From assembly GCA_034667685.1 (NCBI GenBank), contig JAXDQU010000033.1, positions 1,769-65,768 of the forward strand: a DNA stretch of 64,000 bases, in the 5' to 3' direction. Made by a program: the position numbers and the translations under genes. Positions 11,305-64,000 of the stretch are shown here, piece after piece (positions within the stretch are counted from its first letter, which is position 1; every line of letters begins with the position of its first letter). The DNA is from Thermoplasmata archaeon (GTDB lineage Archaea > Thermoplasmatota > SW-10-69-26 > JACQPN01 > JAJPHT01). The notes under the pieces were generated by a model, which was not told where the DNA came from, searched no databases, and saw only the letters and a program-made list of their open reading frames with translations.

Positions 11305-11446
11305 CCACGAACGCGCTGGATCACTTGACCCTTCTGCGGAAATCAGGCACCGTCCGCTCCAGACATGGGATTCCCCTGCGGAGAGGTGCCCGAAAGTGTA
11401 ACGGCACGCGGTGGAGCGGAAGCCAGGGGGAGGGGGTTGTCCGCCC

Positions 11447-11528
11447 GGCTCAGGACTCTGGACTCAGGACTCTGGGCTCAGGGCTCCGGAGCCTTGAGCC
11501 CAGAGTCCTGAGCCCAGAGTCCTGAGCC
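11447..11528. repeat. 82-nt near-perfect palindrome built from inverted triplets of a 15-nt unit (CTCAGGACTCTGGRC-like)
   Basis: Positions i and 22975-i pair across 11447-11528, with mismatches only at 11462/11513 and 11481/11494. The centre is GGCTCCGGAGCC (11482-11493). Units start at 11449, 11464 and 11479 and are mirrored on the right arm. It lies between mcm (-) and the DUF72 gene (+). Confidence 0.85.
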
Positions 11529-11575
11529 CGAAAGTCTCCACCTGCTCCATCGGAAACGCTCCGGGCAGGCTGCAC

Positions 11576-11583
11576 GCTTATCC
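11576..11583 (+). promoter_or_regulatory. TATA-like GCTTATCC upstream of DUF72 gene
   Basis: A/T island 43 nt upstream of GTG 11626. The same GCTTATC/CCTTATC core recurs upstream of the two tandem paralogs (18844, 20787). Confidence 0.3.
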
Positions 11584-11625
11584 CCGCGTCGACCCGTACG
11601 AGAAGGTGGTGTCGCGCTGATCCGC

Positions 11626-13825: not shown

Positions 13826-13849
13826 CGGCCGCGCGGGCGCCTCGCACGT

Positions 13850-13855
13850 GATATC
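13850..13855 (-). promoter_or_regulatory. TATA-like GATATC about 25 nt upstream of ATG 13825 (leaderless-type spacing)
   Basis: Minus strand reads aaaGGATATCAcgtgcgaggcgcccgcgcggccgATG. This is the only A/T island in the 77-nt divergent gap. Confidence 0.35.
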
Positions 13856-13902
13856 CTTTGCCCCCGAGGGCGCGACGCGGCGCCCACCGCCGGCCAAGGA
13901 CG

Positions 13903-18773: not shown

Positions 18774-18843
18774 GCTGTTCACTCCCTGCCAAGGCTGCGC
18801 CACGCGGGCGAGACCCAAGCCACGCCGGAAGGCGCTTGGGGGG

Positions 18844-18851
18844 CGATAAGC
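18844..18851 (-). promoter_or_regulatory. TATA-like GCTTATCG 71 nt upstream of paralog 2 start
   Basis: Minus strand reads ccgaatGCTTATCGcccc. The equivalent ccgaagCCTTATCGgcccc lies 75 nt upstream of paralog 3. Confidence 0.35.
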
Positions 18852-18899
18852 ATTCGGTCCACGCCGCGGTGAAGTCTCGGGAGACCCGCTTCGCTTTCC

Positions 18900-18939
18900 A
18901 AAAAAGGTGGGGTGGGCGGCGCCGCGGGCGCCGCCCACC
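18900..18939 (-). terminator. Perfect 13-bp hairpin followed by T6 downstream of paralog 3
   Basis: GGTGGGCGGCGCC (18911-18923), loop gcg, GGCGCCGCCCACC (18927-18939). A6 at 18900-18905 gives T6 on the minus strand after the hairpin. It starts 13 nt after the stop at 18952. Confidence 0.6.
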
Positions 18940-18951
18940 AAGTCCTGTCGC

Positions 18952-20712: not shown

Positions 20713-20786
20713 GCGATTGCACTCCCAACGCAGGGTGGGATAGCCTCCTCCCGGTCCCGGCGCGCTCCGGCGAACGATCGAGGGGC

Positions 20787-20794
20787 CGATAAGG
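20787..20794 (-). promoter_or_regulatory. TATA-like CCTTATCG 75 nt upstream of paralog 3 start
   Basis: Conserved in sequence and spacing with 18844-18851 upstream of paralog 2. Confidence 0.35.
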
Positions 20795-21079
20795 CTTCGG
20801 CCGCCGGACGATCCCGGAGGTCCTCGTGAGCCCTAGGCGCGACGCGGAACCCCTCTGGCCGGCCGCCGTTTCCCCAAGCGTCATGGGGGGGTGCGACCGA
20901 CCGCCGCGCGGAGGAAGGACGCGCCCCTGCCACCGGCCTCGTTTCTACATGTCGAGCCTCATTCCACGGTCAAAGGGTGTGTCGCAAAACTCAAGAGGGG
21001 CCAACCCGTGGCCTCGGATTGCTGCCAGGGGCGGAGCGTCCACGTCCGTCCAGGTGGCGAAGCCTGAGGAGGCTGTGCA

Positions 21080-49826: not shown

Positions 49827-52800
49827 TGGAGCGCCTCCTCAAGCTCCTGCCGCAGGGCCTCAGCCGCCGCCTCGCGCGCGGCGCGGTGCCCATCGTCGTG
49901 GGCATCGTCCTCCTGATCCTCGTCGCGGGCGTGGCGCTCGCCGCGCTCGTCTCGCCCGGCACGCTGGGCCTCAGCGCCGCGCGCGTGGCCGAGACGCGCC
50001 AGCTTCCCGACACGTTCCAGGGCGCGGGCCTCGCGACGACCGACTCGGACCACGACGGCCTCCCCGACGCGCTGGAGAACTACCTCTACGGCACCGACCC
50101 CGGCCAGTGGAACAGCAGCGGCTTCGGAATCCCGGATGGCTGGCTCGCGCAGTACGGCTACGATCCGCTCTCGCCCGTGACGAAGGACGCGCGCGGCGCC
50201 GCGCCCCCGGCGGACGCGCTCGCGCAGCTCCCCGCGTACGCCAACGGCTACCCCGATTCGTATCGCCCGCCGTTGCTCGATTACTACGACCACGGCAAGC
50301 CCGCGGGCTACCAGCCCGGCCAGGACGCGCCCTGGTGGAGCAAGGCGACCGGCGTCGACCCCACGCAGTGGGACCAGGCCCACACGGGGATTCCCACGGG
50401 CTGGCTGCTGCATTACGGCCTCGACCCGCTGCACACCAACCCCGACGCCGTGGCGCCCGGCGCGAAGGGCAACCTCACGGTGCGCGAGGCGTTCACGCAC
50501 AATACGGACCCGCTGGCGCTCGACAGCGACCTCGACGGCCTCTCCGACTGGACCGAGATCCACGTCACGCGCACCGACCCCGCGAAGTTCAGCACCGCGG
50601 GCACCGGGATCGCGGACGGCTGGGCGCTCCACTTCGCCCTCAACCCGTTCGACGCCAACGCGGGCAGCCAGGACCCCGACCGCGACGGCCTGACCAACCT
50701 GGAGGAGTTCGTCTACTCCTACAATGCGTTCCGCGGCCTCGTCACGCAGCAGGGCCTTCCCGTCCTGTACGCGAAGGGCCTCGACCCGACCAACGCGCAG
50801 ACCGCCGGCACGGGCATCCCCGACGGCTGGTACGTGAAGTACAACCTCTCCCCCTTCGGCGAGGACGTCGACCGCATCATCGCCAACGCGAGCGACTGGC
50901 CCCTCGCCCGGGACCTGCCCCCCGCGGCGGCCGGCCCGCGGGCGAGCTGCACCGAGGTCGCGACGAACCCGCCCGCGCTCGGACAGCCGATCCCCGACTG
51001 CGCGATGACGATCAAGGACGCCTACCTCTACAACCGCCCCCCGTCCTGGAACGAGACGAAGGACGGCGTCTGGTGGGGCGGCACGAACCCCGCCACGGGC
51101 GACACGGACGGCGACGGCGTCCCCGACGCGATCGAGATCCGCGGCTGGTACGCCAACGAGACGCTCGACACCGGCCCCGACGCCAAGCCGCGCACGTACC
51201 TCGCCCACGGCAACCCGCTCCAGTCCGACAGCGACGGCGACGGCCTCACCGACCGCGAGGAATACCTCGGCCAGACCACGTGCGGCGCCGCCGGGCCCAA
51301 CGTCGTCCCGCGCGCGTTCCCGCCCACCAACCCGCTCAACCGCGACACGGCCTTCTCGGGCCTCACCGACCTGGAGAAGGTCTGCGGGGTGGTGCGCGGC
51401 GACGCCAAGTATGATATCACCGGCACCGCGGGCTCGCTCGATCCCACCAAGGCCGACTCGGCGGGCGACCTGATGAAGGACGGCCCGCGCCTGGAGTTCT
51501 GGGCGCAGCGCTTCGACGCCTACCGCGTCAGCCCGCTCTACCCCTACAACGGGAGCGCGTACAAGACGCTCTTCGACTGGACGAAGCTCTACCACCGCTT
51601 CGACGGTATGTCCGAGGAGCAGGTCGTCGCGCAGCTCCGCCCCGACGGCGACGTGGACGGCGACGGCATCCCCAACGTCCTCGACAGCGACCCCTCGGGC
51701 GGTCTCTTCGCGCAGGGCGACCCCGGCGCGGCCAAGACGAAGGTCTACTTCGACGCGGGCCCCAAGATGGACCCCTCGCTCTACAAGCTCACCGAGTTCG
51801 CCAGCAGCTTCCCGCGCCCCGCCACCGACCCGGCCAACCCCGACACGGACGGCGACGGCCTCCCCGACGCCTGGGAGATCCGCTACGGCACCTTCGACCC
51901 CGCGATCCACGCGGCCGGCCAGCAGGGCGGATGGAACCTCGACCCCTCGCGCGCCGACAGCGACGGCAACGGCGTGGCCGACGACAAGGAGAACCTGGAC
52001 GGCGACGTCGTCCCGTGGTACTCCTACGACGCCTCGGCGCGCGCCTCGCACAGCTACTCCTTCACCGTCAAGGACGAGTACGTCGCCGGCACGGACCCCA
52101 ACAAGCTCTCCACCACGGGCGACGGAGTCAGCGACGGCTGGAAGGCGTTCTGGGGCTCGCGCATCGACGCCGAGACGTTCCCCTCGCTCCTCTCCGCCAA
52201 CGACCCGCGCATTGGTGATAGCATCCTCAACCATCCCGCGCGCCGCGCCGAGATCGAGAAGGCGATGCTGTCCTCCCCCATCCAGCCCCTCGCGAAGCTC
52301 TCGTGCGACGCGGGCGGCTGCAAGGAGACCGGCTACGTGCGCTTCGCGTGCGATGCGGCCGACCCCTCGCAGCTTGACATCACGTGCGATCCGCTCCCCG
52401 CGGGCGCCGGGCAGGACCGCTGCGCCGCGCTGGCCGCCGCCGTCGTCCTCGACCCGACGCGCGAGCAGAAGGACGTCAACGGCTGCCTGGACGGCCCCAA
52501 CCTCAAGGGCGTCGCGACGAAGATCCTGCCCATCGAGGGCGTCTCGCGGCTGACGTACGCGGACGAGCAGCGCCTCCGCACGAACCCGTTCCTCGCCGAC
52601 ACGGACGGCGACGGCGCGCCCGACGCGTACGAAGCCTACATGCTCGGCCTCGCCAAGGCGCGCAACCCCGTCTCGACCTTCCCCGACCCGGCCAACCCCG
52701 AGACGGGCGACCGCGCCGACCCCGACAAGGACGGGCTTTCGCTCGCGGACGAGTGCCACGCCGCGGACGGCGCGTGCGCGCAATTCACCTTCAGCTTCCC

Positions 52801-55800
52801 GGACGCCAACGGCCTGCCCAAACCCTACGGCGCGGGGAGCGACCCCAACCTCGCGGACACCGACGGCGACGGCATCGAGGACGGCATCGAGGTCGCCGCC
52901 GGCACCGTCAACCCGCTGGTGCCGAAGGACGTCGACGACTTCCGCAACGCGCTCAAGGACAGCGACTGGGACGGCGTCCCCGACTACCTGGAGCTGACCG
53001 GCTTCGGCAAGACGCAATACAACTTCGATAGCAACGTGAAGACCGACCCGCAGCGCGCCTCGACCGCGGGCAACGGCCTGCTCGATGGCCCGGACCGCTT
53101 CTCCACGCAGGTGCCCACCGCGGTCGCCGCGCAGTGGAACGCGACCGGCATCGCGCACAAGACGCTCGCCAACGGCACCGTGGAGTTCTACGGCGCGGGC
53201 ACGTTCCACAGCGTGTGCGGCTGCCTGCCCACCGTGCTCGATAGCAGCGGCACGGGCATCCCCGATGGCTGGTACGCGTATTACCTGCGCAGCCCCACCG
53301 AGGGCACGCCGCCCGTCGCGCAGTACGCGCTCCACAGGCCGTCGTGGTGGGACGAGAGCCGGATGGGCGTCTGGTGGTGGGGCGCTCCGGCGGCCGCGAC
53401 GAGCGCGCCGACCGACCTCAACGGCAACGGCTTGAACGACAACAACGGCGAGGACCCCTTCCCCTCGCTCGCCAACGGCACGCTGGTCACGGCCCAGGGC
53501 ACGTTGCGCAGCCTCGACGAGGCCCGCGCGTGGGTGCTCGCGGCGCCGACGCCTGAGATCATGCGCCAGCGCGCGCAGAGCCTGGGCGACGCGCCCGGCG
53601 AGCCTGCGTTCGGCCGCGCGCAGCCGCACGATGGCGCCCGCGCGGCGAGCCAGATCACGGATCTCGTCGTGGCCAACGGCACGGGCGTCGTGGTCAAGGG
53701 TGTGCCATTCCCTGTTACGGGCAGGCTCGTCGCGGCGGGCGCGCCCGCCGCGAACCGCACGATCCTCGTCTCGATGTTCTCGCCCGACGCGGCGAAGCTC
53801 GTGGGCGCGGGCTTCACGGATGACAACGGGCGCTTCAGCTTCCAGGCCGACCTCGCGACGGGCCAGACCGTGACGATCCCCGCGGGCCGCGTGCTCCTGG
53901 GCGAGACGTCGGGCGCGGCGCTCCTGCCCTTCGATCCGGCCAGCGTCGGCGCGGGCGCGGCGACGGGCGGCATCCCCAACCAGATCGTCGTGTGGACGTA
54001 CAACACGAGCATCGCGCTCCCCCACCCGACCGCCTTCAGCGCGGCCGCGCCGGTGAACGTCACGGTCCACTCGGACACCGTCCTCGACACCACGGTCAAC
54101 CCCGTGGCGGAGAACGGCCAGACGCTCGTGGGCGACGTGCGCCTCGCCGACAAGGGGGGCGGCGCGCTCCAGGAGCCGATCAACGTCACGTGGAGCGGCG
54201 CGCCGGGCGCTGCGCCGCTGAAGCTCGCGCGCGAGACCGACCGCGCGGGCCACGTCAACCTCACGAACCTGAACCTCCCGATCTCGGTGCGCCAGCCCGG
54301 CGTCTACCGGCTGGGCGCGACGTTCGCCTCGACCGACCCCAACCTCAACAGCTCCGCGCTCGCCTTCGACATCGACGTGCGCAGCCCCGCCACGCTCTCG
54401 GTCGCCCTCTCGGCGCCGGGCGGCACGGTGGGCGACGTGCTGGGGGTGACGGGCAGCCTCGCGACGCGCGACGTGAGGCTCGTGGACGGCTCGCTCGTCC
54501 CAGGCGCGCCCGTGCCGGGCGTCACGGTCCACGTCCTCCTGGGCGCGCTCGACCAGCCCGTCACCACGGATGCCAACGGCAACTTCAGCGTCTCCTTCCC
54601 GATCCCCGCGACGCTCGCGGCCGGCCCGCAGAGCGTGCTCGCGCGCTTCGGGGGCGACGAGCTCACGGGCGCCGCGGAGGGAAGCGCGCCGCTCGCGGTG
54701 AAGCGCACCGCGCAGATCGTCGACCTGACGACGCTCGCCGGGCCGCGCTCGCTGACCAGCACGCTCGCGGGCCGCCTCGTGGACAACGCGGGCGACGGCA
54801 TCCTGGGCACGCTGAGCGCGCGCGGCGCGAAGGGCTTCCTGGGCAGCGTCGACACCGACGACACCGGCGCCTTCCGCCTCGACGTGCCCCTGGGCGCCCT
54901 GCCCCTGGGCCTCTCCAGCGTGAACGTCACGTACCCCGGCGACCGCGACCACGGCGAGGCGCAGAACCTCACCACCGCGCGCGTCACCAGCGCCACGCGC
55001 CTCGTCCTGGCGCCGCTCCCCTCCAGCCTCGTGCGCGGCCAGCCGCTCGCGATCTCCGCGCGCCTTCTCGACGACCAGGACGCGCCCGTCGCGCAGCAGG
55101 CCGTCACCGTCGCGTGGCGCGGCGAGAAGGTCGGCACCACCGTCACCGACGCGCAAGGCCGCCTCGCCTTCCAGATTCCCACGAACCTCACCGAGCGCCC
55201 CACGCTCGCGGACGTCGGCCTCGTCTTCGCCCCGCGCGCCACCTCCGTCTACCAGGGCGCCATCGCCGCGGGCCGCGTGCAGGTCCTCCAGGGCGCCTCG
55301 CTCTCGCTCGACCCGCAGCGCGTCTCGCGCGGCTTCGTCGCCGCCACCGGCAGCCTCGTCGACGACCAGGGCCACCCCCTCGCCGCCGCGCCCGTCACGC
55401 TGCGCGTCGGAGGGCTCGACTTCGGCGAGACGCGCACCGCCCGCAACGGCACCTTCCTCGTCGAGCGCCCGCTCCCGCCCGCGATCGGCCTGGGTGATAT
55501 CACGGCGCTCGCCAGCTTCCCGGGCGAGGCGGGCGTCGCGTCCGCCAACGCCACCGCGACGTGGGGCGTGCGCAGCCCGCTCAGCCTGGAGCTGACGAGC
55601 CTCGCACCGCTCGTGCGCGGCGAGACGGCCCCGCTCGAGGGGACGCTCGTGGACGACCAGGGCAGGCCCGTCGACGCGACGCTGGCGATGAGCCTCGCCG
55701 GCCAGCCCGTGGGCACGCTCGTCGCGCACGCCGGCAAGCTCAGCGGCGGAGTCGCCGTCCCCGCCGACCTCGCGCGCGGCGAGGCGACGCTCTGGATCAA

Positions 55801-56596
55801 CGCGACCGCCACGAGCCAGTACGACGCGATGGCGAAGGCGCTCGACGTCGTCGTCAAGATCCGGCCCAAGGTCGAGGTGCACCTCCCGGCGCTCGCCGTG
55901 CGCGGCTTCAGCGTCGCGGGCGACGTCACCCTGCTCGACGACAAGGGGCAGCCGCTCCGGAACGCCAGCTTCGCCTACGCGCTGGGCAAGGGCGCCTCGC
56001 CCCTCTTCGGCCTCACCGACGCGGAAGGGCGCGCGACGCTCGCCTCGGTGACTCCCCTTTCGGGCGACGCATCGTTCGCCATCACCGTGCGCGGCGCGGG
56101 CGACGTCCTGGGCACCGAGTACCGCAGCCAGGCCATGACCGTCGTGGGCCCGAGCACGCCGCTCGCGTACGCCACGATCCTCGTCATCGTCCTCGTCGTC
56201 CTCCTCGTCATCGCGGCCGTGGTCGTGCTCGCGATCCTGCGCCGCCGCCAGCTGGGCGAGGCGCGCGAGATCCTGCAGGAGGCGATCGCCGAATTGCTCG
56301 CGGGCAACGAGTACCAGGGCGTCATCTTCCTGGCGTACCGGCGCTTCAGCGCGCACCTCGCCCGCTACGGCTACGCCGAGAAGGAGAGCCAGACGCCGCG
56401 CGAGTTCGCGGGCTCCGTCCGGAAAGCGTTGCCCGTGGGCGCCGTCGCGCTGCGCGAGCTGATCCGCCTCTTCGAGGAGGCGCGCTACTCCGACCACGCC
56501 ATCGGCACCGAGGAGCGCGACCAGGCCGTCGCCTCGCTCGCCGCCGTGCGCAACGAGCTCGACGGCCTCCTGGGCCGCAAGGCGGTGAACGGATGA
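49823..56596 (+). CDS. Surface protein 4 (2,257 aa): N-terminal TM anchor, thrombospondin-type-3-like Ca-binding repeats, Ig/carboxypeptidase-regulatory-like repeats, TM helix, cytoplasmic DUF4129-like tail
   Basis: N-terminal RRLARGAVPIVVGIVLLILVAGVALAALV. At least 12 DxDxDGxxDxxE loops. Recurrent G[IV][PAS]DGW motif. Seven or more units like TGRLVAAG...TDDNGRFSF and GSLVDDQGHPL...ARNGTFLV. TM span ILVIVLVVLLVIAAVVVLAILRRRQ. Tail has QTPREFAGSV...LIRLFEEARYSDH (DUF4129-like). Confidence 0.85.
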   Translation: MMERLLKLLPQGLSRRLARGAVPIVVGIVLLILVAGVALAALVSPGTLGLSAARVAETRQLPDTFQGAGLATTDSDHDGLPDALENYLYGTDPGQWNSSGFGIPDGWLAQYGYDPLSPVTKDARGAAPPADALAQLPAYANGYPDSYRPPLLDYYDHGKPAGYQPGQDAPWWSKATGVDPTQWDQAHTGIPTGWLLHYGLDPLHTNPDAVAPGAKGNLTVREAFTHNTDPLALDSDLDGLSDWTEIHVTRTDPAKFSTAGTGIADGWALHFALNPFDANAGSQDPDRDGLTNLEEFVYSYNAFRGLVTQQGLPVLYAKGLDPTNAQTAGTGIPDGWYVKYNLSPFGEDVDRIIANASDWPLARDLPPAAAGPRASCTEVATNPPALGQPIPDCAMTIKDAYLYNRPPSWNETKDGVWWGGTNPATGDTDGDGVPDAIEIRGWYANETLDTGPDAKPRTYLAHGNPLQSDSDGDGLTDREEYLGQTTCGAAGPNVVPRAFPPTNPLNRDTAFSGLTDLEKVCGVVRGDAKYDITGTAGSLDPTKADSAGDLMKDGPRLEFWAQRFDAYRVSPLYPYNGSAYKTLFDWTKLYHRFDGMSEEQVVAQLRPDGDVDGDGIPNVLDSDPSGGLFAQGDPGAAKTKVYFDAGPKMDPSLYKLTEFASSFPRPATDPANPDTDGDGLPDAWEIRYGTFDPAIHAAGQQGGWNLDPSRADSDGNGVADDKENLDGDVVPWYSYDASARASHSYSFTVKDEYVAGTDPNKLSTTGDGVSDGWKAFWGSRIDAETFPSLLSANDPRIGDSILNHPARRAEIEKAMLSSPIQPLAKLSCDAGGCKETGYVRFACDAADPSQLDITCDPLPAGAGQDRCAALAAAVVLDPTREQKDVNGCLDGPNLKGVATKILPIEGVSRLTYADEQRLRTNPFLADTDGDGAPDAYEAYMLGLAKARNPVSTFPDPANPETGDRADPDKDGLSLADECHAADGACAQFTFSFPDANGLPKPYGAGSDPNLADTDGDGIEDGIEVAAGTVNPLVPKDVDDFRNALKDSDWDGVPDYLELTGFGKTQYNFDSNVKTDPQRASTAGNGLLDGPDRFSTQVPTAVAAQWNATGIAHKTLANGTVEFYGAGTFHSVCGCLPTVLDSSGTGIPDGWYAYYLRSPTEGTPPVAQYALHRPSWWDESRMGVWWWGAPAAATSAPTDLNGNGLNDNNGEDPFPSLANGTLVTAQGTLRSLDEARAWVLAAPTPEIMRQRAQSLGDAPGEPAFGRAQPHDGARAASQITDLVVANGTGVVVKGVPFPVTGRLVAAGAPAANRTILVSMFSPDAAKLVGAGFTDDNGRFSFQADLATGQTVTIPAGRVLLGETSGAALLPFDPASVGAGAATGGIPNQIVVWTYNTSIALPHPTAFSAAAPVNVTVHSDTVLDTTVNPVAENGQTLVGDVRLADKGGGALQEPINVTWSGAPGAAPLKLARETDRAGHVNLTNLNLPISVRQPGVYRLGATFASTDPNLNSSALAFDIDVRSPATLSVALSAPGGTVGDVLGVTGSLATRDVRLVDGSLVPGAPVPGVTVHVLLGALDQPVTTDANGNFSVSFPIPATLAAGPQSVLARFGGDELTGAAEGSAPLAVKRTAQIVDLTTLAGPRSLTSTLAGRLVDNAGDGILGTLSARGAKGFLGSVDTDDTGAFRLDVPLGALPLGLSSVNVTYPGDRDHGEAQNLTTARVTSATRLVLAPLPSSLVRGQPLAISARLLDDQDAPVAQQAVTVAWRGEKVGTTVTDAQGRLAFQIPTNLTERPTLADVGLVFAPRATSVYQGAIAAGRVQVLQGASLSLDPQRVSRGFVAATGSLVDDQGHPLAAAPVTLRVGGLDFGETRTARNGTFLVERPLPPAIGLGDITALASFPGEAGVASANATATWGVRSPLSLELTSLAPLVRGETAPLEGTLVDDQGRPVDATLAMSLAGQPVGTLVAHAGKLSGGVAVPADLARGEATLWINATATSQYDAMAKALDVVVKIRPKVEVHLPALAVRGFSVAGDVTLLDDKGQPLRNASFAYALGKGASPLFGLTDAEGRATLASVTPLSGDASFAITVRGAGDVLGTEYRSQAMTVVGPSTPLAYATILVIVLVVLLVIAAVVVLAILRRRQLGEAREILQEAIAELLAGNEYQGVIFLAYRRFSAHLARYGYAEKESQTPREFAGSVRKALPVGAVALRELIRLFEEARYSDHAIGTEERDQAVASLAAVRNELDGLLGRKAVNG
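50042..52995 (+). repeat. Array of thrombospondin-type-3-like calcium-binding loops (DxDxDGxxDxxE) with interspersed GIPDGW motifs
   Basis: Examples: DSDHDGLPDALE (50042), DSDLDGLSDWTE, DPDRDGLTNLEE, DTDGDGVPDAIE, DSDGDGLTDREE, DTDGDGLPDAWE, DSDGNGVADDKE, DTDGDGAPDAYE, DPDKDGLSLADE, DTDGDGIEDGIE, DSDWDGVPDYLE. Confidence 0.75.
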
Positions 56597-57816
56597 AGCT
56601 CCTCCAAGACCCCAAGCCGCGCGGCTGGCTCGCCGTGGGCCTCGTCGCCGCGCTCGCGCTGATCGTGCTATCCCCGTTCGTGCTCTTCCCCGCCCAGCGC
56701 CATCTCTCGGCCTACGCCGAGGGCGCCGAGGACGCCTCGCACGTGCGCGGCGAGCTCTCCGCCTGGACGACGCGCGACGTGCTGACCACGCCCTCTTTGC
56801 TATCCGGCGTCAAGGACCCAGGCAAGACGCTCCTCCTGGTCATGGGCGCCGAGCGCCGCTACGACGCCTCCGAGGCGGAGGCCATCGTCTCCTTCCTGCG
56901 CGCCGGCGGGCACGTCATCCTCGCCGACGAGGGCGGCTTCGGCACCGCCGTCGCGCGAGAGGCGGGCTTCGCCTTCGACAACAGCCGCGTGCTCGACAGC
57001 AGCAACTACCACGGCGACCCCAAGCTCGTCGTCGCCAACAGCACGCTCGCGGGCCGCACGTACCGCATCCTCTTCAACGCGCCCACCGCCATCGTGGCGC
57101 TCCCCGACGCGACCGGCCTCGCGCCGCAGGTCCTCGCGCGCTCCACCGCCGCGGCCGCGTTCCCGGAGAGCAGCTACCGCGACCTCAAGGGCAACGGCCA
57201 GATCGACATCGCCGACCCCACGGGGCCCTTCGACCTCGTCGTGCGCACCGACCGCCTGGGCGGCACGCTCGTCCTCGTCGCCGACACCGGCCTCTTCATG
57301 AACGGGCAGGTGGACCTCGGCGAGTTCGAGAACGGCGCCTACGTCCGCGCGCTCGTGAATGACATCCTTCCTCGGGACGGCACGATCCTGATCGACGAGA
57401 GCCGCCACGCGCCGCACCCCGGCCTCGCGCCGCTCGACGACGCCGCGCGCGCCCTGGGCCGCGTCACGAGCGGCGACCTCGTCACCTACGCGGCCGTCGC
57501 GCTCCTCGTCCTCGCGGCCGCGGTCGCCGTCGCGATGACGCGCGCCACCGAGGACTGGAGCCACCACGATCACACCGTCGACCACGTCGTCGCGGCGCCC
57601 GAGTCGCTGCGGCCCGACCTGGAAAGAGCGCAGCGTCTCGCACGCCGCCGCATCAGCGAAAAGCATAATATCCCCATGGAGCAGGTGGCGGCGATGAGCG
57701 CCGAGCAGCTCTTGGCGGTCTGCGGCGATGCGATGCTCGCCAACGCCGCCGCCGGAACGCTGCGCGCCGACCCTTCTCCCCTCTTCCGATCCTACGCAGC
57801 TGAGGCAATCCCATGA
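56593..57816 (+). CDS. DUF4350-like membrane protein (407 aa)
   Basis: ATG 56593 overlaps the upstream TGA (ATGA). N-terminal TM GWLAVGLVAALALIVLSPFVLF. Motif KTLLLVMGAERRYDASEAEAIVSFLRAGGHVILADEGG is typical of DUF4350. Second TM LVTYAAVALLVLAAAVAVAM. Confidence 0.75.
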   Translation: MKLLQDPKPRGWLAVGLVAALALIVLSPFVLFPAQRHLSAYAEGAEDASHVRGELSAWTTRDVLTTPSLLSGVKDPGKTLLLVMGAERRYDASEAEAIVSFLRAGGHVILADEGGFGTAVAREAGFAFDNSRVLDSSNYHGDPKLVVANSTLAGRTYRILFNAPTAIVALPDATGLAPQVLARSTAAAAFPESSYRDLKGNGQIDIADPTGPFDLVVRTDRLGGTLVLVADTGLFMNGQVDLGEFENGAYVRALVNDILPRDGTILIDESRHAPHPGLAPLDDAARALGRVTSGDLVTYAAVALLVLAAAVAVAMTRATEDWSHHDHTVDHVVAAPESLRPDLERAQRLARRRISEKHNIPMEQVAAMSAEQLLAVCGDAMLANAAAGTLRADPSPLFRSYAAEAIP

Positions 57817-58850
57817 CCCCGCCCGAGACGACGACCCGCATCACGCCCACGGCCGCGAGCGCCACGCTCACCGGGCCGCCGCGCGACCCCAAGATCCGCG
57901 AGGCCATCCGCCAGGTCGGCGTGGCGGGCACCGCGCTCACCGACGAAGTCGGCCGGGTGATCGTGGGCAAGAAGGACCAGCTCAAGCTCGTCGTGCTCGC
58001 CATCTTCACGGAAGGCAGCCACGTCCTCCTGGAGGACATGCCGGGCCTGGGCAAGTCCGTCCTCGCCGCGGCCCTCGCCCGCGCGAGCGGCTGCGACTTC
58101 AAGCGCGTGCAGTTCACGCCCGACCTGCTGCCCTCTGACATCAACGGCACGTTCATCCTCAACCAGCGGACGCACGAGTTCGACTTCCGCCCCGGGCCGA
58201 TCTTCACGAACTACCTGCTCGCGGACGAGATCAACCGCGCCTCGCCCAAGACGCAGTCCGCCATGCTCGAGGCGATGGCCGAGAAGCAGGTGACGGTGGA
58301 AGGCTACACGCAGAAGCTTCCGAAGCCCTTCGTCGTCATGGCGACGCAGAACCCCGTCGAGCAGGCCGGCACGTACCCGCTGCCGGAGGCGCAGATGGAC
58401 CGCTTCGCGATGAAGCTCAGCATGGGCTATCCTTCCCTGGAGGAGGAGGCGGAGATCCTGATCCGCCGCGCCAAGCGTGGCAAGGACGACTTCGACGTCA
58501 AGCCCGTGAGCAGCGCCGAGCAGATCGTGGCGATGCAGAAGGCGATCGAGAACGTGTACGTCTCGGACGAGCTGATCCGCTACATCGCGACGCTCATCGA
58601 CGCCACGCGCAAGCACCCGCAGCTCGTGGCCGGCTCGTCGCCGCGCGGCACGCAGAACCTGTTCAAGCTGGCGCGCGGCTGGGCCGCGATCCACGGCCGC
58701 GACTACGTGGTGCCCGATGACATCAAGCGCCTGATGGTGCCCGTGCTGGCGCACCGCGTGATCCTGAAGCCGGAGCCCCGCATCAAGGGCGTGAAGGCGC
58801 AGGACATCATGCAGCAGATCCTCGACAACACGCCCGTGCCCAAGGTCTGA
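57813..58850 (+). CDS. moxR: MoxR-family AAA+ ATPase
   Basis: ATG overlaps the upstream TGA (ATGA). Walker A PGLGKS, Walker B LLADEINRA, ATQNPVEQAGTYPLPEAQMDRF, SPRG sensor region. 345 aa, typical MoxR (AAA_3) size. Confidence 0.95.
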   Translation: MTPPETTTRITPTAASATLTGPPRDPKIREAIRQVGVAGTALTDEVGRVIVGKKDQLKLVVLAIFTEGSHVLLEDMPGLGKSVLAAALARASGCDFKRVQFTPDLLPSDINGTFILNQRTHEFDFRPGPIFTNYLLADEINRASPKTQSAMLEAMAEKQVTVEGYTQKLPKPFVVMATQNPVEQAGTYPLPEAQMDRFAMKLSMGYPSLEEEAEILIRRAKRGKDDFDVKPVSSAEQIVAMQKAIENVYVSDELIRYIATLIDATRKHPQLVAGSSPRGTQNLFKLARGWAAIHGRDYVVPDDIKRLMVPVLAHRVILKPEPRIKGVKAQDIMQQILDNTPVPKV

Positions 58851-58852
58851 AC

Positions 58853-60100
58853 ATGTGGACGCGCAAGTCGACGCTGCTCGTGGGGGTCGGCCTCCTGGCC
58901 CTCCTCCTGGGCATCGCGGGGAAGAGCCCCGCCGCCCTCGCCGCCGGCAGCGTCGCGCTCGCGTTCGTCCTGGTCAACCGCGCGCTCTTCCGCGGCACGG
59001 AGGACGTGCGCGCCACGCGCAGGCTCGACCTGCAGCGCGTCTACGAGGGCGAGACGACGCAGGTGCGCGTCGAGGTGGAGAACCCGAGCAAGCGCCTTCT
59101 CTTCCTGGAGGTGCGCGACCGCCTTCCGCGCCAGCTCAAGGTCGCGGCGGGCGCGTCGTACGACTTCGTGGCGCTTCCCGGCGGGGCGCGCGATGACGTG
59201 ACCTACACGGTGCAGGCGCCGCTCCTGGGCGTCTACGAGGTGGGCCCCACCGACCTGCGCCTGGAGGATCCCTTCGGCCTCTTCTACGAGGAGCGCGCGG
59301 TCGAGGGCAGCAACACCTTCTGGGTCCTGCCGCGCCACGAGGACCTCCGCAAGGCCGCGCTGCTCTCGAACCTCCCGATGCCGCTGATGGGGGAGCACCA
59401 GGTCAACCGGCCCGGCGACGGCTTCGACTTCTTCGCGCTGCGCGAGTACGTGCCCGGCGACACGATGCGCGCCATCAACTGGAAGGCCAGCGCGCGCTCG
59501 GGCAAGATGATGGTCAACCAGATGATGCGCACCACCGCGGCCGAGGTCGCCGTCTTCATCGACGCGCGCGCCGTCACCGCGATGGGCAAGGAGGCGCAGA
59601 GCGGCCGCGTGCTCACCGCGCGCGCCGCGGCCAGCATGATCGAGCTGGTCTTCGCGCGCAAGGACCAGCCGCGCGTCATCCTCTACGGCGAGGGCGTGCG
59701 CGAGATCGAGCCGCAGCCCGCCGACCGCATGGTGCCGCTCCTCCTGGAGACGCTCGCGGAGCTGGTGCCCGCCGGCAGTGTGCCGCTGCGCCACGCCGTC
59801 TCCCAGACGCTCCCGTCGCTCAAGCCCCGCACGCCGGTCATCCTCGTCTCGCCCATGCTCGACGATGGCACCGTGGCGGAGGCGGCCAGCATCCTGCTCG
59901 CCAACGACATGCTCCTGGCCGCGGTCTCGCCGCGCCCCGAGAGCCTGCCCGGCCTTCCGGCGGACTTCGCCGCGGCGCTCATGAAGGAGCGCGCGCAGGC
60001 GCTCAACGAGCTGCGCGGCTACGGCGCCATCGTCATCGACCTGGAGCCGGGCGCGAGCCTGGCCGCGACGATGGAGAAGGGGAGGCTGCTCGTGGCATGA
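58853..60100 (+). CDS. DUF58 family protein (vWA-fold partner of MoxR)
   Basis: Starts 2 nt after the moxR stop. Two N-terminal hydrophobic helices. Signature FDFFALREYVPGDTMRAINWKASAR. Confidence 0.9.
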   Translation: MWTRKSTLLVGVGLLALLLGIAGKSPAALAAGSVALAFVLVNRALFRGTEDVRATRRLDLQRVYEGETTQVRVEVENPSKRLLFLEVRDRLPRQLKVAAGASYDFVALPGGARDDVTYTVQAPLLGVYEVGPTDLRLEDPFGLFYEERAVEGSNTFWVLPRHEDLRKAALLSNLPMPLMGEHQVNRPGDGFDFFALREYVPGDTMRAINWKASARSGKMMVNQMMRTTAAEVAVFIDARAVTAMGKEAQSGRVLTARAAASMIELVFARKDQPRVILYGEGVREIEPQPADRMVPLLLETLAELVPAGSVPLRHAVSQTLPSLKPRTPVILVSPMLDDGTVAEAASILLANDMLLAAVSPRPESLPGLPADFAAALMKERAQALNELRGYGAIVIDLEPGASLAATMEKGRLLVA

Positions 60101-60777
60101 CGAAGCCCTTCCCCCACGAGCGGCGCCTGCAGCGCTTCGCGTTCGCCGCGCTCGCCCTCGCCGCGATCCTCGCCCTCGTCGCCACGCGCCAGGGAGAGAT
60201 GCGTCTCTTCGGCGCCGCCGTCCCCGGCCTCGCGGCGTACGTCCTCGTGGGCGCGGGCGCCATCGCGGGCGTCGTCGCGATCCTGCGCCGCGTGCCCTGG
60301 CTGGCGCTCGCGGCCGTGGCGCTCCTCGTGCTCGCCACCGTGCCGGCCGACCTGCTATCACCCGGCCTCCCGGCCTGGGGCGTCGCGCTCGCCTTCGCCG
60401 CCGCCGCGCTCGCCTTCGCCGAGCTGGTCCACATGATGGGGCGCTACGAGGCCGCGCACCGCGCCGTGGAGCGCGACGGCCTGCCCGAGGACCACCTCAA
60501 CCGCGTCACCGACGAGGCGCTGGCCACGCTCGCCGGCCGCGCCGGCCTGGCGCTCCTCCTCGTGGGGCTCGCGCTGGGCCTGGCGTACCTTCTCGCCTTC
60601 GCGGGCCCCGCGCAGTGGCGCGACGCGCTGGAGACGACCTCGCCGCTGGGCGTCGGCCTCGCCGCGATGGCGCTCCTGGGCGCGGGCGCCCTTCTCGTCC
60701 TCTTCCGTGGCGCGCGCATGCCGTGGCGGCGCGCCCCGATCCCGCCAACCCAGGAGAATGCTCCCGATGTCGACTAG
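60097..60777 (+). CDS. Polytopic membrane protein (226 aa, about 6 hydrophobic spans), family not recognised
   Basis: ATG 60097 overlaps the DUF58 TGA (ATGA), with GGGAGG 11 nt upstream. Ala/Leu/Gly-rich spans, e.g. FAFAALALAAILALVAT and AGLALLLVGLALGLAYLLAFAG. Confidence 0.65.
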   Translation: MTKPFPHERRLQRFAFAALALAAILALVATRQGEMRLFGAAVPGLAAYVLVGAGAIAGVVAILRRVPWLALAAVALLVLATVPADLLSPGLPAWGVALAFAAAALAFAELVHMMGRYEAAHRAVERDGLPEDHLNRVTDEALATLAGRAGLALLLVGLALGLAYLLAFAGPAQWRDALETTSPLGVGLAAMALLGAGALLVLFRGARMPWRRAPIPPTQENAPDVD

Positions 60778-63700
60778 GACCGTTGCCGCCCTGCTCGTCG
60801 CTCTCGTCTCGCTCAGCGTGCTCCCCGCGGGCGCCCAGGCCCAGGGGGCGGGGACCAGCGACCTCGTCGCGACGGCGCTCGTCCTCGACAACCCCATCGT
60901 CAACAGGACGACGACCGTGGACCTCACGGTGCAGAACCTCGGCACCGCCACCAGCGGCCCCTTCACGGTCTTCTTCGGCTACGGGAAGGCCGACTCGGAC
61001 GCCGACTGCCTCACCGCCGACAACTCGGCCGACTCCAGCGACCCGACCCAGGTCGCCAACTCCGGTCCGCAGGCGTGCTATCAGCAGCAGCCCTCGGGCC
61101 TGCCCGGAGGCCAATCCGTCCACGTCACGTTCCGCTGGACGATCACGCCCGCGAAGGCGTTCCCGAACAACGGCCAGATCACGATCATGACCGAGATCGA
61201 GAACCCCTGCACGCAGCAGCAGAACACGACGGCCTGCCAGGGCACGACCGGCGTGATCGGCAGCCGGAGCCAGGGCCCCGACACGGAGACGGGGAACAAC
61301 CTGAAGGCGTTCTTCCCCTCCGTCAAGATCCCCAAGGTCCACGCGTGGCCGCTGCGCAACGCTCCGGCGCCCGAGCCGGCCAGCGCGCCCACGTTCGTGA
61401 ACCTCGACTGGCCGCGCGACCAGGTCAGCGTGCCGTGCGTCGACCCGCCGCTCGTCAACGACGTCGCGTGCGTCGCGCAGCCCGGCCACGCCATCCAGTC
61501 GGTCTACCACGTCGTCAACAGCGGCAACACCGGCGACACGATGGTGGGCTCGGTCCTCGCGATGGCGTCGCTCTACAGCGACCTGGGCTACCGCGTCACG
61601 TTCGCGCCCGCCTCCAAGTTCCTCAACCCCGGCGAGTCGGCCGACATCGTCGCGATGATCGACGTGCCCCCGCAGGCCCCCGCCGGCCAGTCGCCCAACG
61701 TGGGCACCGCCACGCCCAACATCACGCTGGTGTGGTCCTCCTCCACCGATTCCCGCGTCCGCAGCGACGACGCGGGCAACACGGCGCAGGACTGCCCGTC
61801 CACGCTCGACGACGCGCGCGAGTGCCAGGCCGCCACGCTCCTGCCCTTCGTGGTGGCGACCCGGCACGGCCTCAACGTCACGACGAGCCTCAAGGACAAC
61901 TTCACGACGGTCTCCGTGGGCAACACGACCTCGTTCAGCCTGATCGCGAACAACACGGGCAACGCGCCCGACGAGTACGCGGTCACGCTCGACCGCGCGC
62001 TGAGCACGATCAACGACTCGTGGCTGCGCCCCGGCTCGCTCCCCGCGCCGCGCACGCTCCAGGCCGGCGAGGTCTCCACGTTCCAGCCCACCATCGTCCC
62101 GCCCGCGAACGCGACGAAGGGATACTACACGGTGGCGTACGACGTGCAGAGCACCTCGACCGACGCGACGCTGCCCCAGAAGGTCAAGTTCACCGTGCTC
62201 CTCGACCAGTGGTACGGCCTGACCTGGCAGAACGACAACCCGCGCCAGCGCCTCGTGCCCGGCGAGAGCGCCTCGTTCCGCATGAGCGTCGCCAACCCCG
62301 GCAACGGCCCGGAGAACCTGACGGTGGGCGTGCAGAACCAGCCCAACGGATGGTTCTGGTCGATCTCCAGCACGACGATCGCGCTGGGTCCCCACGGCCT
62401 GGGCAACGACACGGCCGTCTTCTTCCTCAACACGACGATCCCGCCCAACGTCCCCGCCGGCGCGGCGGCGACCTTCTTCGTGAACGTCACGTCCAACGAC
62501 CCGGCCAACCAGCCCGCGCTGCGCCCCGCGCCCGCGAGCCTGGAGGACGAGGTGGACGTGATCGCGGGCCCCAACGCCGAGCTGAGCGCCGGCGTCACCG
62601 AGCAGTTCGTCGACCCGGGCAACACGACGACCTACCGCGTCCACGTGCGCAACGTGGGCAACGAGGCGAGCAACTTCAGCGTCGTCGCGCGCTCCTCCAG
62701 CGGCGTCTGGGGCGCGAGCGTCGACCCGGGCTATCTCGTGCTCGTGCCGGTCAACTCGCCCACCGGCTTCGCGGAGGGCGACGTCACGCTCACGCTGCGC
62801 GCGCCCGCGGGCGTGCGGGTGGGCGACCCCGAGTCGATCGACCACGTGACCGTGACGCTGACGCCCTCGACGGACGACGGGCGCGCGCGCAGCCTCGTGC
62901 TCGACGGGCGCCTCTCCGGCCCCGACCTCACCGTCGCGCGCGTCGACGCCAACACCACGACGCCCTACGGCGGCGACCCCCTCGGCCTCACGGTGCGCGT
63001 GGGCAACGTCGGCAACCGCCAGCCCGCGGCGGCGGTCACGCTCAGCGTCGTCGCCATCGACGCCACGGGCGGCCGGACGCTCATCGGCAACGTCACGCTC
63101 CTTCCCACCGACCTGCGCCCGGGCGGCGTGCACGACGTGCGGGTGCCCTGGGACACGACGGGCGTCGAGGGCGCGCAGGTGATCCAGGCGACGATCGACC
63201 CCGCCAACGCGATCCCCGAGATCGACGAGACCAACGACCAGGCCTCGCTCTCGCTGGTGCTCCGCACCGCCAACGCGATCCGCCTCGTGCCTCCGCAGGA
63301 CGGCCTCTCGGGCCACCCGGGCGAGCGCGTCTCGTACGACGCCTCGCCGGACGTCTTCCAGATCCAGTACACCGGCAACCAGCCCTCCGAGCCCGTGCGC
63401 GTCGAGATCCTCAGCGAGCACGGCTGGGTCGCGGCGGACAAGGCCGTCATCAACCTCGACCTGCCGCACCTCGCGACGCTCCCCATCCCGGTCGACCTCA
63501 CGATCCCCACGCTGCCCGGCACGAGCACCGACCGGCTGACGCTGCGCGTGACGCCCGTGTACCGCCCCAACGCGCCCGTCACGGCCGCCATCACGACCGG
63601 CGTGCTCGACGACGCGCCTCCCCAGATCCAGGGCGTCACCGTCGACCCGCCCGCGATCAAGCTGGGCCAGAACGCGACGATCTACGCCACGGTGGTCGAC

Positions 63701-64000
63701 GCGACCGGCCTCGCCAGCGTGCGCGCCAACGTCATCACGCCCACCAGCGACGTCGAGAGCCTGCTGCTCCTGCCGCAGCCCGACGGGCGCTTCGCCGCGA
63801 CGCAGCCCTGGCTCCAGGCCGGCACGTACGGCGTCACCCTCGCCGCGACGGACAACGCCGTGCCCACGCCCAACGTGAACGACACGCACCAGGTGCTCGC
63901 CTCGTTCAGCGTCGCGCCCGGAAGCCAGCCCGTCATCGCGCTCGCCCCCGGCCAGTCCACGACGATCCACACGGGCTCGGTCGTGCTCCTCTCGATCACG
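60767..64000 (+). CDS. Large secreted CARDB-repeat surface protein, 3'-truncated by the window (at least 1,078 aa)
   Basis: Not in the ORF track because there is no stop. I checked every TGA/TAG/TAA from 60767 to 64000 and none falls in this frame. ATG 60767 (alternative 60758) follows AGGAG and overlaps the upstream gene by 11 nt. Signal MSTRTVAALLVALVSLSVLPAGAQA. CARDB-like units (DLVATALVLDNPIVNRTTTVDLTVQNLGTATSGPF; PDLTVARVDANTTTPYGGDPLGLTVRVGNVGN). Confidence 0.8.
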   Translation, partial: MSTRTVAALLVALVSLSVLPAGAQAQGAGTSDLVATALVLDNPIVNRTTTVDLTVQNLGTATSGPFTVFFGYGKADSDADCLTADNSADSSDPTQVANSGPQACYQQQPSGLPGGQSVHVTFRWTITPAKAFPNNGQITIMTEIENPCTQQQNTTACQGTTGVIGSRSQGPDTETGNNLKAFFPSVKIPKVHAWPLRNAPAPEPASAPTFVNLDWPRDQVSVPCVDPPLVNDVACVAQPGHAIQSVYHVVNSGNTGDTMVGSVLAMASLYSDLGYRVTFAPASKFLNPGESADIVAMIDVPPQAPAGQSPNVGTATPNITLVWSSSTDSRVRSDDAGNTAQDCPSTLDDARECQAATLLPFVVATRHGLNVTTSLKDNFTTVSVGNTTSFSLIANNTGNAPDEYAVTLDRALSTINDSWLRPGSLPAPRTLQAGEVSTFQPTIVPPANATKGYYTVAYDVQSTSTDATLPQKVKFTVLLDQWYGLTWQNDNPRQRLVPGESASFRMSVANPGNGPENLTVGVQNQPNGWFWSISSTTIALGPHGLGNDTAVFFLNTTIPPNVPAGAAATFFVNVTSNDPANQPALRPAPASLEDEVDVIAGPNAELSAGVTEQFVDPGNTTTYRVHVRNVGNEASNFSVVARSSSGVWGASVDPGYLVLVPVNSPTGFAEGDVTLTLRAPAGVRVGDPESIDHVTVTLTPSTDDGRARSLVLDGRLSGPDLTVARVDANTTTPYGGDPLGLTVRVGNVGNRQPAAAVTLSVVAIDATGGRTLIGNVTLLPTDLRPGGVHDVRVPWDTTGVEGAQVIQATIDPANAIPEIDETNDQASLSLVLRTANAIRLVPPQDGLSGHPGERVSYDASPDVFQIQYTGNQPSEPVRVEILSEHGWVAADKAVINLDLPHLATLPIPVDLTIPTLPGTSTDRLTLRVTPVYRPNAPVTAAITTGVLDDAPPQIQGVTVDPPAIKLGQNATIYATVVDATGLASVRANVITPTSDVESLLLLPQPDGRFAATQPWLQAGTYGVTLAATDNAVPTPNVNDTHQVLASFSVAPGSQPVIALAPGQSTTIHTGSVVLLSIT

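Follow-up and report, generated by a model that had tools for sequence, protein, structure and literature searches.

This analysis concerns an operon in a 64,000-nucleotide (nt) stretch of contig JAXDQU010000033.1 (assembly GCA_034667685.1) from a Thermoplasmata archaeon; the whole stretch is called the window, and coordinates are positions in it unless another locus is named. The operon contains genes for a DUF4350 protein, a MoxR AAA+ ATPase, a DUF58 protein and a 226-amino-acid (aa) membrane protein (p226), together with genes for very large secreted proteins. The first-pass annotation had taken the cassette to be four genes at 56593-60777 and the giant protein encoded immediately upstream to be a flanking neighbour. 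Judged from its domain content, this upstream protein (g4) is instead the DUF4129 subunit of the cassette, and the unit is a five-protein set at 49823-60777 rather than a four-gene cassette plus neighbours. We propose, with the chances about evenly balanced, that the five proteins may form a membrane machine in which MoxR and DUF58 would act on the tails of their partners, building a platform at the cell surface.

The DUF4129 subunit and its cassette partners

The C-terminus of g4 (aa 2171-2239) matches Pfam DUF4129 with E 2.9e-15 and a score of 56.5 bits (cut-off 24.8). Topologies here and below come from a hydropathy scan and the positive-inside rule, which predict for g4 an N-in transmembrane helix (TM) at about aa 19-45, an ectodomain of about 2060 aa, a second TM at about aa 2113-2140 and a cytoplasmic DUF4129 domain, preceded on its predicted cytoplasmic side by an RRRQ stop-transfer sequence. 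From aa 74 to 1057, the ectodomain has TSP3-type calcium motifs (DxDxDG; eight strict, 11 loose), in a search that covered g4 only among the operon proteins. C-terminal to these motifs are CarboxypepD_reg/MG4/Big_1-like beta-sandwich repeats, which align with the 716-aa DUF4129 protein of Halogeometricum (BLASTP E 4e-12). Because g4 combines a DUF4129 tail with repeats homologous to those of haloarchaeal cassette DUF4129 proteins, we assign it to the cassette as a subunit, apparently enlarged about threefold compared to the haloarchaeal one. The position of the DUF4129 domain at the C-terminus of g4 therefore sets the start of the cassette at 49823. Collinear g4 orthologues of 2255-2304 aa are encoded in relatives. 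DUF4129 is annotated in six of the eight annotated non-Bat MoxR-DUF58 loci inspected, Catenovulum and Actinomyces being the two without it, and the extracytoplasmic part of these partners ranges from almost nothing (323 aa) to 716-748-aa proteins with the g4 repeat families. By these annotations, the DUF4129 subunit is a frequent cassette partner with a variable ectodomain.

The G+C content of the window is 72-76%, and approaches 0.98 at third codon positions. Because spurious open reading frames (ORFs) are plentiful at such G+C, gene frames were set by the codon-position pattern (GC3 frame plot), which backs the annotated plus-strand frames at 56593-60777 (third-position G+C about 0.92-0.98). 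All coding from 21080 to the end of the window is on the plus strand and constitutes one operon that extends beyond 64000. Its first gene starts with TTG and is preceded by a 366-nt non-coding stretch and a GGAGG site. The genes are as follows.

21080-33160, + strand: g1, first operon gene, 4026-aa secreted surface protein with fn3 and Big_13 domains and a signal peptide
33157-45741, + strand: g2, 4194-aa secreted surface protein with three CARDB domains, NPCBM_assoc and a MAM-like domain
45738-49826, + strand: g3, 1362-aa secreted surface protein with NPCBM_assoc, CARDB and Ig-like domains
49823-56596, + strand: g4, 2257-aa DUF4129 component, assigned from Pfam, hydropathy and collinear orthologues
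56593-57816, + strand: DUF4350 protein (arCOG01314-type), 407 aa; Pfam DUF4350 E 2.3e-11, above the cut-off
57813-58850, + strand: MoxR AAA+ ATPase, 345 aa; AAA_3 E 3.3e-62, AAA_lid_2 E 2.5e-24
58853-60100, + strand: DUF58 protein, 415 aa; Pfam E 5.2e-18
60097-60777, + strand: p226, 226-aa membrane protein that matches no Pfam or NCBIfam family
60767-64000, continuing past the window, + strand: g9, CARDB/choice-of-anchor-T-like secreted protein, 1257 aa on the full contig

Gene junctions carry ATGA overlaps at 49823, 56593, 57813 and 60097 and GTGA overlaps at 33157 and 45738; the MoxR-DUF58 junction is a 2-nt gap and the p226-g9 junction an 11-nt overlap. Inspection of the junctions thus bore out the ATGA coupling that had been reported for the cassette, and the Pfam matches and GC3 frames likewise upheld the earlier coordinates and the DUF4350, MoxR and DUF58 family calls. 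A 351-aa gene located 3' of g9 in relatives was rejected as an operon member (gap of at least 180 nt; weak GAPDH-like matches).

The DUF4350 protein is predicted to have an N-in TM or signal anchor, an ectodomain of about 260 aa, a TM at about aa 296-316 and a 90-aa cytoplasmic tail, which is helical and conserved and holds many of the invariant residues of the family alignment. An AlphaFold2 (AF2) model (pLDDT 80) has a GIFT/GldG-like alpha/beta ectodomain. Foldseek matched this model to the N-terminal domain of IFT52 (E 3.8e-7) and to chain G of the human OST-B complex (E 5.3e-7), with further matches to the trimerisation domain of a GH42 beta-galactosidase and to GATase1-like proteins. We take chain G to be OST48, which is also a GIFT-domain type I membrane protein. 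As modelled, the fold would agree with the similarity of DUF4350-type proteins to GldG and beta-galactosidase that Makarova et al. (2015; PMC5898192) reported. A family profile search added only one further distant DUF4350 member, P0077. The operon surface proteins carry 16-50 N-glycosylation sequons each, and three glycosyltransferase genes adjoin the cassette in Haloferax larsenii; taken with the OST-B-like DUF4350 model, a tie between the cassette and surface glycosylation is conceivable.

MoxR is the most conserved gene of the operon (88-94% identity among relatives). It scores 208.6 bits against AAA_3 (cut-off 27) and 85.2 bits against AAA_lid_2 (cut-off 22.7) and matches PDB entry 2R44, listed as an "uncharacterized protein" (E 1.9e-76). 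A P-loop (PGLGKS) and a Walker B motif (LLADE) are present in the translation, so that ATPase activity and a hexameric state are putative, and MoxR is predicted to be cytoplasmic because it lacks a signal peptide or TM. The DUF58 gene lies directly 3' of MoxR, as expected of a DUF58/vWA partner. Its product has an N-terminal two-helix membrane hairpin followed by a DUF58 (vWA-like) domain, which is predicted to be cytoplasmic because the hairpin is flanked by positive residues on both sides. In alignments, the metal-site position of this domain reads F-I-D-A-R-A, without the DxSxS serines; D-A/G-R occupies it throughout the clade and in the aligned haloarchaeal DUF58 proteins. DxSxS is also absent in other non-Bat loci and is kept in the Vibrio protein of a Bat-type-looking locus. 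A sequence search for a solved homologue of the DUF58 protein returned none, and its vWA fold is assigned on the basis of Pfam only. An Ig-like N-terminal part is ascribed to a DUF58-family protein in the relevant passage of Makarova et al. (2015; PMC5898192).

The remaining subunit, p226, had been described as a membrane protein without a recognised motif. That description held, since no family was matched, and six predicted TM helices with both termini inside (from hydropathy and an AF2 model) can be added to it. In the alignment, conservation is highest in the helical hairpin that joins TM4 to TM5 and is predicted to be cytoplasmic (ELVHM..RYE.AHRAVE...PEDH.NRVTDEA). Homologues are few: 22 in 5.8 billion clusters, all at least 45% identical, and 20 matches of the family profile among 1.84 billion representatives. 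The AF2 model (pLDDT 76) is an all-helical membrane bundle that gave no meaningful Foldseek match in the PDB (best E 0.55, TM-score 0.31), and a profile search against PDB sequences found no relative. In bacteria, the transglutaminase partner of MoxR-DUF58 has TgpA_N as its membrane domain. Seven of 21 p226 family members match it weakly (PF11992; best E 2.9e-4), and in four singly scanned members these matches reach 10-15 bits, compared to a cut-off of 30, in a consistent register. Given the role of TgpA_N, these matches are an attractive lead, but they are sub-threshold, and hhalign against the Actinomyces oris transglutaminase protein, which itself has no TgpA_N match, gave a probability below 1%. 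TgpA sequences were also sought beside DUF58 in Vibrio, Photobacterium and Ensifer replicons, and none supplied one; the ORF layout of the Vibrio locus appears Bat-type, and the Ensifer locus has a vWA/TPR protein confirmed by Pfam.

SpoIIM and RDD (from Catenovulum) and haloarchaeal DUF7519 were rejected as p226 homologues (hhalign probability below 1%). Comparisons of the p226 profile with the other small post-DUF58 proteins also gave less than 1% each, as did MarC, which served as a control. As far as these searches reach, p226 is a lineage-specific subunit without a convincing known relative. A small polytopic protein directly after DUF58 does recur elsewhere, including a 200-aa protein in Streptomyces, DUF7519 in Halomontanus and 139-158-aa proteins in Halogeometricum and Haloferax. 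Genes for small proteins with three to four TMs, unassigned to a family except in Halomontanus, are found at this position at 11122-11649 in locus L021, 9089-9691 in L022, 14829-15302 in L015, 15585-16004 in L014 and 8148-8624 in L028. They often overlap the DUF58 stop codon and are positional analogues of p226 without detectable sequence similarity.

Conservation of the operon and its surface proteins

Relatives of the cassette come from soil and groundwater metagenomes. A scan of GTDB contigs with clade-specific tail patterns returned four loci, and by this measure the cassette type is confined to four GTDB species representatives; distant cassettes, which such patterns could not sample, were sampled by tblastn on annotated plasmids. 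Every sufficiently long contig has the order g3 (1321-1389 aa), g4, DUF4350, MoxR, DUF58, p226 (226-227 aa) and g9 (1237-1257 aa). Because this order recurs in every independent relative with enough flanking sequence, the arrangement is not a product of chance. The g3-g9 synteny persists down to 48% DUF4350 identity, and the earlier-proposed tie of the cassette to surface proteins is real inside the lineage. In a relative at 36% DUF4350 identity, the g4 orthologue is still collinear (38% identity over 2000 aa) and ends in DUF4129, and its gene overlaps DUF4350 by 4 nt. Orthologues of g1 and g2, the latter full-length, are present in L020, the sole relative that could be examined that far upstream. 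A 70%-identical archaeal operon lies on JAJPHT010000008.1 of GCA_021325135.1 (L016/L003), a record titled "Proteobacteria bacterium isolate Centralia_MAG_189"; this contig is clearly from Thermoplasmatota, and the metagenome-assembled genome is probably mislabelled or chimeric.

Across the same genome pairs, identities are 88-94% for MoxR and 65-81% for DUF58, 48-69% for g4, 50-69% for DUF4350 and 47-71% for p226, and 43-64% for g3, 51% for g1, 53% for g2 and 33-57% for g9. Thus, g4 evolves in step with DUF4350 and p226 (identities of 48-50% and 69-71% when compared within genome pairs), and the proteins with sortase-type signals diverge faster (33-57% for g9, g1 and g2).

These faster-diverging proteins (g1, g2, g3 and g9) each have a signal peptide and, at the C-terminus, a short motif followed by a TM and a basic tail. 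The C-termini read VPLGG, TM and KKK in g1 (33040-33160), VPGPEL, TM and a basic tail in g2 (45620-45741), VPGPEP, TM and RRRR in g3 (49720-49826), and LPGPE, TM and RRRR in g9. In their orthologues, the motifs read PGF (IPGFE or VPGFE; for example, L004 14300-14444 and L009 17750-17902). The window copies fall below the cut-offs of curated sorting domains (PGF_CTERM, 15.7 against 24.5; PEP_CTERM, 15.5 against 16), and the g9 orthologue of L009 (IPGFE...) passes those of Heimdall-CTERM (26.5 against 24) and Loki-CTERM (20.3 against 19.9). The tails therefore look like a Thermoplasmatota flavour, undescribed so far, of the PGF-/Heimdall-/Loki-CTERM sorting signal. In Haloferax, PGF-CTERM signals together with archaeosortase A direct processing and lipid anchoring. 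No archaeosortase gene was found among the ORFs scanned in the 64-kb window. Surface proteins do adjoin the cassette, as the first-pass annotation had noted, but "giant" does not fit the downstream one, since g9, at 1257 aa, is large rather than giant.

Several genes upstream of the operon deserve mention. Three paralogous secreted proteins are encoded on the minus strand just upstream of it (12476-13897, 16986-18941 and 18952-20712) and have in common an N-terminal WG.YG(G)SEPDT motif and a C-terminal LGTVGD.Y.(F/L)RDV.CYD motif; the two that were scanned (16986-18941 and 18952-20712) matched no Pfam family. Farther upstream are two putative regulators with multiple helix-turn-helix domains (ArsR/TrmB/HVO_0163-like; 640-2274 and 4108-5139, both on the plus strand) and, on the minus strand, genes for the small subunit of carbamoyl-phosphate synthase (5136-6278) and a MarC membrane protein (6797-7696); their connection to the operon is not obvious. 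An MCM helicase gene lies at 9139-11304 on the minus strand, and proteins closely homologous to those of the window are labelled "Candidatus Thermoplasmatota archaeon", so that the host is an uncultured archaeon, of a soil lineage.

The cassette in other organisms and known systems

The operon cassette appears to fit the arCOG01314-associated system, which Makarova, Galperin and Koonin (2015; PMC5898192), in the part of their paper devoted to it, predicted to function in secretion, membrane remodelling or surface assembly. To that extent, the surface or secretion role suggested in the first-pass annotation is not new. As in the system outlined there, the operon encodes a MoxR/GvpN-type ATPase and a DUF4350 protein whose parts are a signal or anchor, a large ectodomain and a C-terminal TM, along with a vWA-like protein of the DUF58 family, Ig-like surface neighbours (CARDB, NPCBM_assoc, fn3 and Big_13) and a small multi-TM protein. 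According to the same part of that paper, Ig-like or S-layer-like neighbours occur in the majority of archaeal arCOG01314 operons, and a COG4743/DUF1616 subunit is frequent but not universal. Unlike that system, the operon has no DUF1616/COG4743 (PF07760) S-layer-like subunit among the proteins scanned, and it has a 2257-aa DUF4129 subunit, a family not mentioned where the arCOG01314 system is described (PMC5898192). The lineage-specific six-TM family and the four very large proteins with sortase-type signals on the transcript also set it apart from the system as described there.

The association of DUF4129, DUF4350, MoxR and DUF58 that the first-pass annotation had named was found on haloarchaeal plasmids, where genes of all four core families occur together (Halogeometricum borinquense pHBOR01 and Haloferax larsenii pHl5678-2). 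The haloarchaeal DUF4129 proteins and g4 have in common a layout of TM, beta-sandwich repeats, TM and DUF4129, the DUF4350 ectodomains are homologous (hhalign probability 98%), and the haloarchaeal DUF58 proteins have the DxR variant at the vWA metal-site position. These loci differ from the operon in having genes on both strands, a DUF4129 protein of 716-748 aa, other small membrane proteins and DUF1616. Giant proteins are absent in H. larsenii; in Halogeometricum, a divergently transcribed 1777-aa CARDB protein is encoded beside the cassette. At 19046-21262 of the Halogeometricum pHBOR01 locus (L015), the DUF4129 gene stands between a tubulin/FtsZ-family gene and a DUF1616 gene, a layout that echoes a vWA-FtsZ-like association reportedly noted by Makarova and Koonin. 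On Haloferax mediterranei pHME322 (L028, 5376-13670), a set of DUF4129, DUF58, small membrane protein and MoxR genes adjoins genes for a 1142-aa "baseplate J/gp47 family protein" and a protein of more than 1370 aa, as well as the halocin H4 gene, which hints at a tie of the cassette to contractile-injection-like or secreted-toxin loci.

In bacteria, three of the four core families are annotated both in a Streptomyces locus, without DUF4350, and in the Catenovulum adriaticum locus, without an annotated DUF4129 (order RDD, SpoIIM, a 515-aa protein, DUF4350, MoxR, DUF58). The 176-aa Streptomyces protein at the DUF4350 position aligns as expected with the DUF4350 tail, but not significantly (E 0.068). 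DUF4350, MoxR and DUF58 are also annotated in the mycobacterial Rv3689-Rv3695 locus (PMC8191103). The Mycobacterium tuberculosis and C. adriaticum loci have the same DUF4350-MoxR-DUF58 order as the window (PMC8191103 for the former); they differ in having RDD and SpoIIM instead of p226 and small membrane partners but no giants. The operon resembles the TgpA/YebA-like operons and the actinobacterial PFNA cluster in combining a MoxR-DUF58 core with a polytopic membrane protein (PMC3495828; PMC8430577). Unlike them, it has no transglutaminase core, Ser/Thr kinase or FHA protein, and it has a DUF4350 protein, which they lack; no Transglut_core match was found in g4, DUF4350, DUF58 or p226 at E <= 0.01. 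Pfam architectures show a MoxR-DUF58-DUF4129 core common to TgpA/YebA-type operons, and the C-terminal DUF4129 of this triad is present in the operon as the tail of g4. The Bat (BatA-E) type is not matched, because no VWA_2 or TPR proteins were found among the operon proteins scanned, whereas the Ensifer locus has them.

The core cassette occurs without a nearby large surface protein in at least five inspected loci, those of H. larsenii, Halomontanus rarus, H. mediterranei, Streptomyces and C. adriaticum; the mycobacterial Rv3689-Rv3695 cassette likewise lacks giant surface proteins. Such proteins do stand beside MoxR-DUF58 in other taxa. In A. oris, a gene for a 2096-aa Big_9/cadherin/fn3 protein is followed by MoxR, DUF58, a Transglut_core protein and an RDD-FHA protein, with no DUF4129 detected in this locus, and in the bifidobacterial PFNA operon the gene directly upstream of MoxR codes for a very large Ig/FN3 surface protein (PMC8430577). 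The Actinomyces and Bifidobacterium loci thus resemble the operon in having a very large Ig/FN3 protein near MoxR, there immediately upstream. We conclude that giants are recurrent but non-obligatory companions of the cassette.

Both this type of cassette and its presumed tie to the cell surface had been described before. New in this lineage are the giant DUF4129 subunit and a fully coupled operon with four very large proteins carrying sortase-type signals, to which sequence analysis adds a putatively lineage-specific six-TM subunit and a predicted conserved cytoplasmic module in every membrane subunit.

A surface-platform model and its alternatives

In the arrangement that we favour, a cytoplasmic MoxR AAA+ ring would pair with a membrane-tethered cytoplasmic DUF58 adaptor (vWA-like, with no canonical metal site). 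The pair would act on the DUF4129 domain of g4, the C-terminal tail of DUF4350 and the TM4-TM5 loop of p226. ATP-driven remodelling inside the cell would then assemble or switch the parts outside, which would be the g4 stalk of calcium repeats and beta-sandwich domains and the GIFT-type ectodomain of DUF4350. Together, these parts may form a cell-surface platform at which g1, g2, g3 and g9 would be exported, organised or held. The proposal builds on domain content, topology predictions, translational coupling, synteny, relative evolutionary rates and the core cassette elsewhere; physical contacts, an inside-to-outside direction and a relation to g1-g3 and g9 are what it would add to them.

Several results are consistent with such a platform. 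Because of the predicted topologies of g4, DUF4350, DUF58 and p226, every membrane subunit would offer a conserved module to the cytoplasm. The DUF4350 model matches GIFT-type domains of assembly scaffolds (IFT52 and the human OST-B subunit). The 4-nt or near-4-nt junctions, the g3-g9 synteny, the matching rates of g4, DUF4350 and p226, and the recurrence of DUF4129 point to one functional unit, and independent big Ig-like neighbours in A. oris, Halogeometricum and the PFNA operon (PMC8430577) point to the surface. Other points weigh against the platform. Support for this cassette type is computational throughout, and a hydropathy scan with the positive-inside rule is the sole basis of all predicted topologies. 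Makarova et al. (2015; PMC5898192), where they treat the Ig-vWA (DUF58-type) protein, call it "likely secreted", which would invert the model in part. The conservation of g1 and g2 was seen in one relative (L020). The core cassette lacks large surface proteins in several genomes, so that its link to g1-g3 and g9 may be lineage-specific or regulatory only. Finally, no pore-forming or translocase-like component was identified in the operon, and a strict "secretion system" is therefore unsupported.

The first-pass annotation had suggested that the cassette is a dedicated chaperone for g1, g2, g3 and g9, acting in their folding, calcium loading or membrane anchoring, a reading that we consider unlikely. 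Co-transcription and coupling with these four genes are conserved in the lineage, large Ig-like, FN3 or CARDB proteins repeatedly adjoin MoxR-DUF58 in unrelated taxa (PMC8430577), and M. tuberculosis MoxR1 is said, in a passage of PMC12067865 citing earlier work, to assist the export of RipA. Folding and calcium binding happen outside the cell, whereas the ATPase and the DUF58 domain are both predicted to be cytoplasmic, so that MoxR and DUF58 could not directly fold or calcium-load extracellular domains, and DUF58 lacks the DxSxS metal-site residues. Anchoring would not need the MoxR cassette, because the PGF/Heimdall-CTERM-like signals at the C-termini of g1-g3 and g9 would already account for it. 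The TSP3-type calcium repeats that were found lie in the cassette subunit g4 itself, the one protein searched for them. Moreover, the core cassette occurs elsewhere without giants, a finding of the kind that the first-pass annotation had itself set down as refuting its proposal, so that giants are not obligate clients of the cassette.

Alternatively, the cassette could serve envelope maintenance or stress responses in general, with a function unrelated to the surface genes beyond their common transcript, as was suggested for Bat-type and rhizobial MoxR operons. The diverse contexts of the core cassette (sugar metabolism, metal resistance, halocin and baseplate-like genes) are compatible with this idea, and the M. 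chelonae orthologues of Rv3689-Rv3695 are co-regulated, including with glycerol-uptake genes (PMC8191103). It is rendered improbable by the lineage's own DUF4129 subunit, a predicted 2060-aa surface structure, by an operon order with 4-nt overlaps that is kept over deep divergence, and by the Ig-like or S-layer-like neighbours that Makarova et al. (PMC5898192) report for the majority of archaeal arCOG01314 operons.

We see only a slim chance that the cassette performs membrane-proximal AAA+ processing or quality control, with DUF58 recruiting tails, MoxR unfolding or extracting them and a partner cleaving them. AAA+-coupled processing was proposed by Zhang and Aravind (2012; PMC3495828) for operons of MoxR, vWA and transglutaminase-like peptidase genes, and the A. 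oris locus does join MoxR-DUF58 with a Transglut_core protein. Pfam detected no transglutaminase or peptidase domain in g4, DUF4350, DUF58 or p226. The weak TgpA_N matches in a third of the p226 family members scanned (7/21), although in a consistent register, remain far below the cut-off (10-15 against 30 bits), and comparing the p226 profile with the transglutaminase protein of A. oris revealed no similarity.

It is highly improbable, and effectively ruled out by domain content, that the cassette is one of the MoxR-vWA ternary systems of anti-phage defence or conflict (Kaur et al. 2020): surface proteins are frequently phage receptors and bpMoxR gives a sub-threshold match (E 0.0019; 17.7 bits, cut-off 27), but the MoxR protein scores 208 bits with AAA_3 proper, the four cassette proteins gave no match to a PADLOC family, there is no beta-propeller, effector or NTPase-sensor architecture, and the synteny is stable, unlike that of defence islands.

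A bolder version of the platform model is an inside-out mechanical switch, in which the cytoplasmic MoxR/DUF58 motor would pull on the GIFT protein and on the DUF4129 tail of g4, itself a calcium-stiffened stalk of 2000 residues, and thereby change the extension, adhesiveness or lateral movement of the giant surface coat. We regard this version as a long shot. If true, it would give the DUF4129/DUF4350/MoxR/DUF58 class its first assigned function and would be the prokaryotic equivalent of the inside-out activation of integrins or of gliding on adhesin tracks.

MoxR-DUF58 cassettes with DUF4129 and DUF4350 partners span archaea, Actinobacteria (including M. tuberculosis Rv3689-Rv3695) and Proteobacteria. 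The lineage described here offers an unusually legible version of them, with a giant DUF4129 subunit, translational coupling of all partners and cytoplasmic modules that are predicted to face the ATPase. The "chaperone" label can be replaced by a testable architecture, in which cytoplasmic tails would be the substrates of MoxR-DUF58, and the haloarchaeal homologues (Haloferax and Halogeometricum) provide genetically tractable models. That these cassettes are repeatedly paired, in unrelated taxa, with huge Ig-like surface proteins suggests that they generally serve to build or control the coat of the cell surface.

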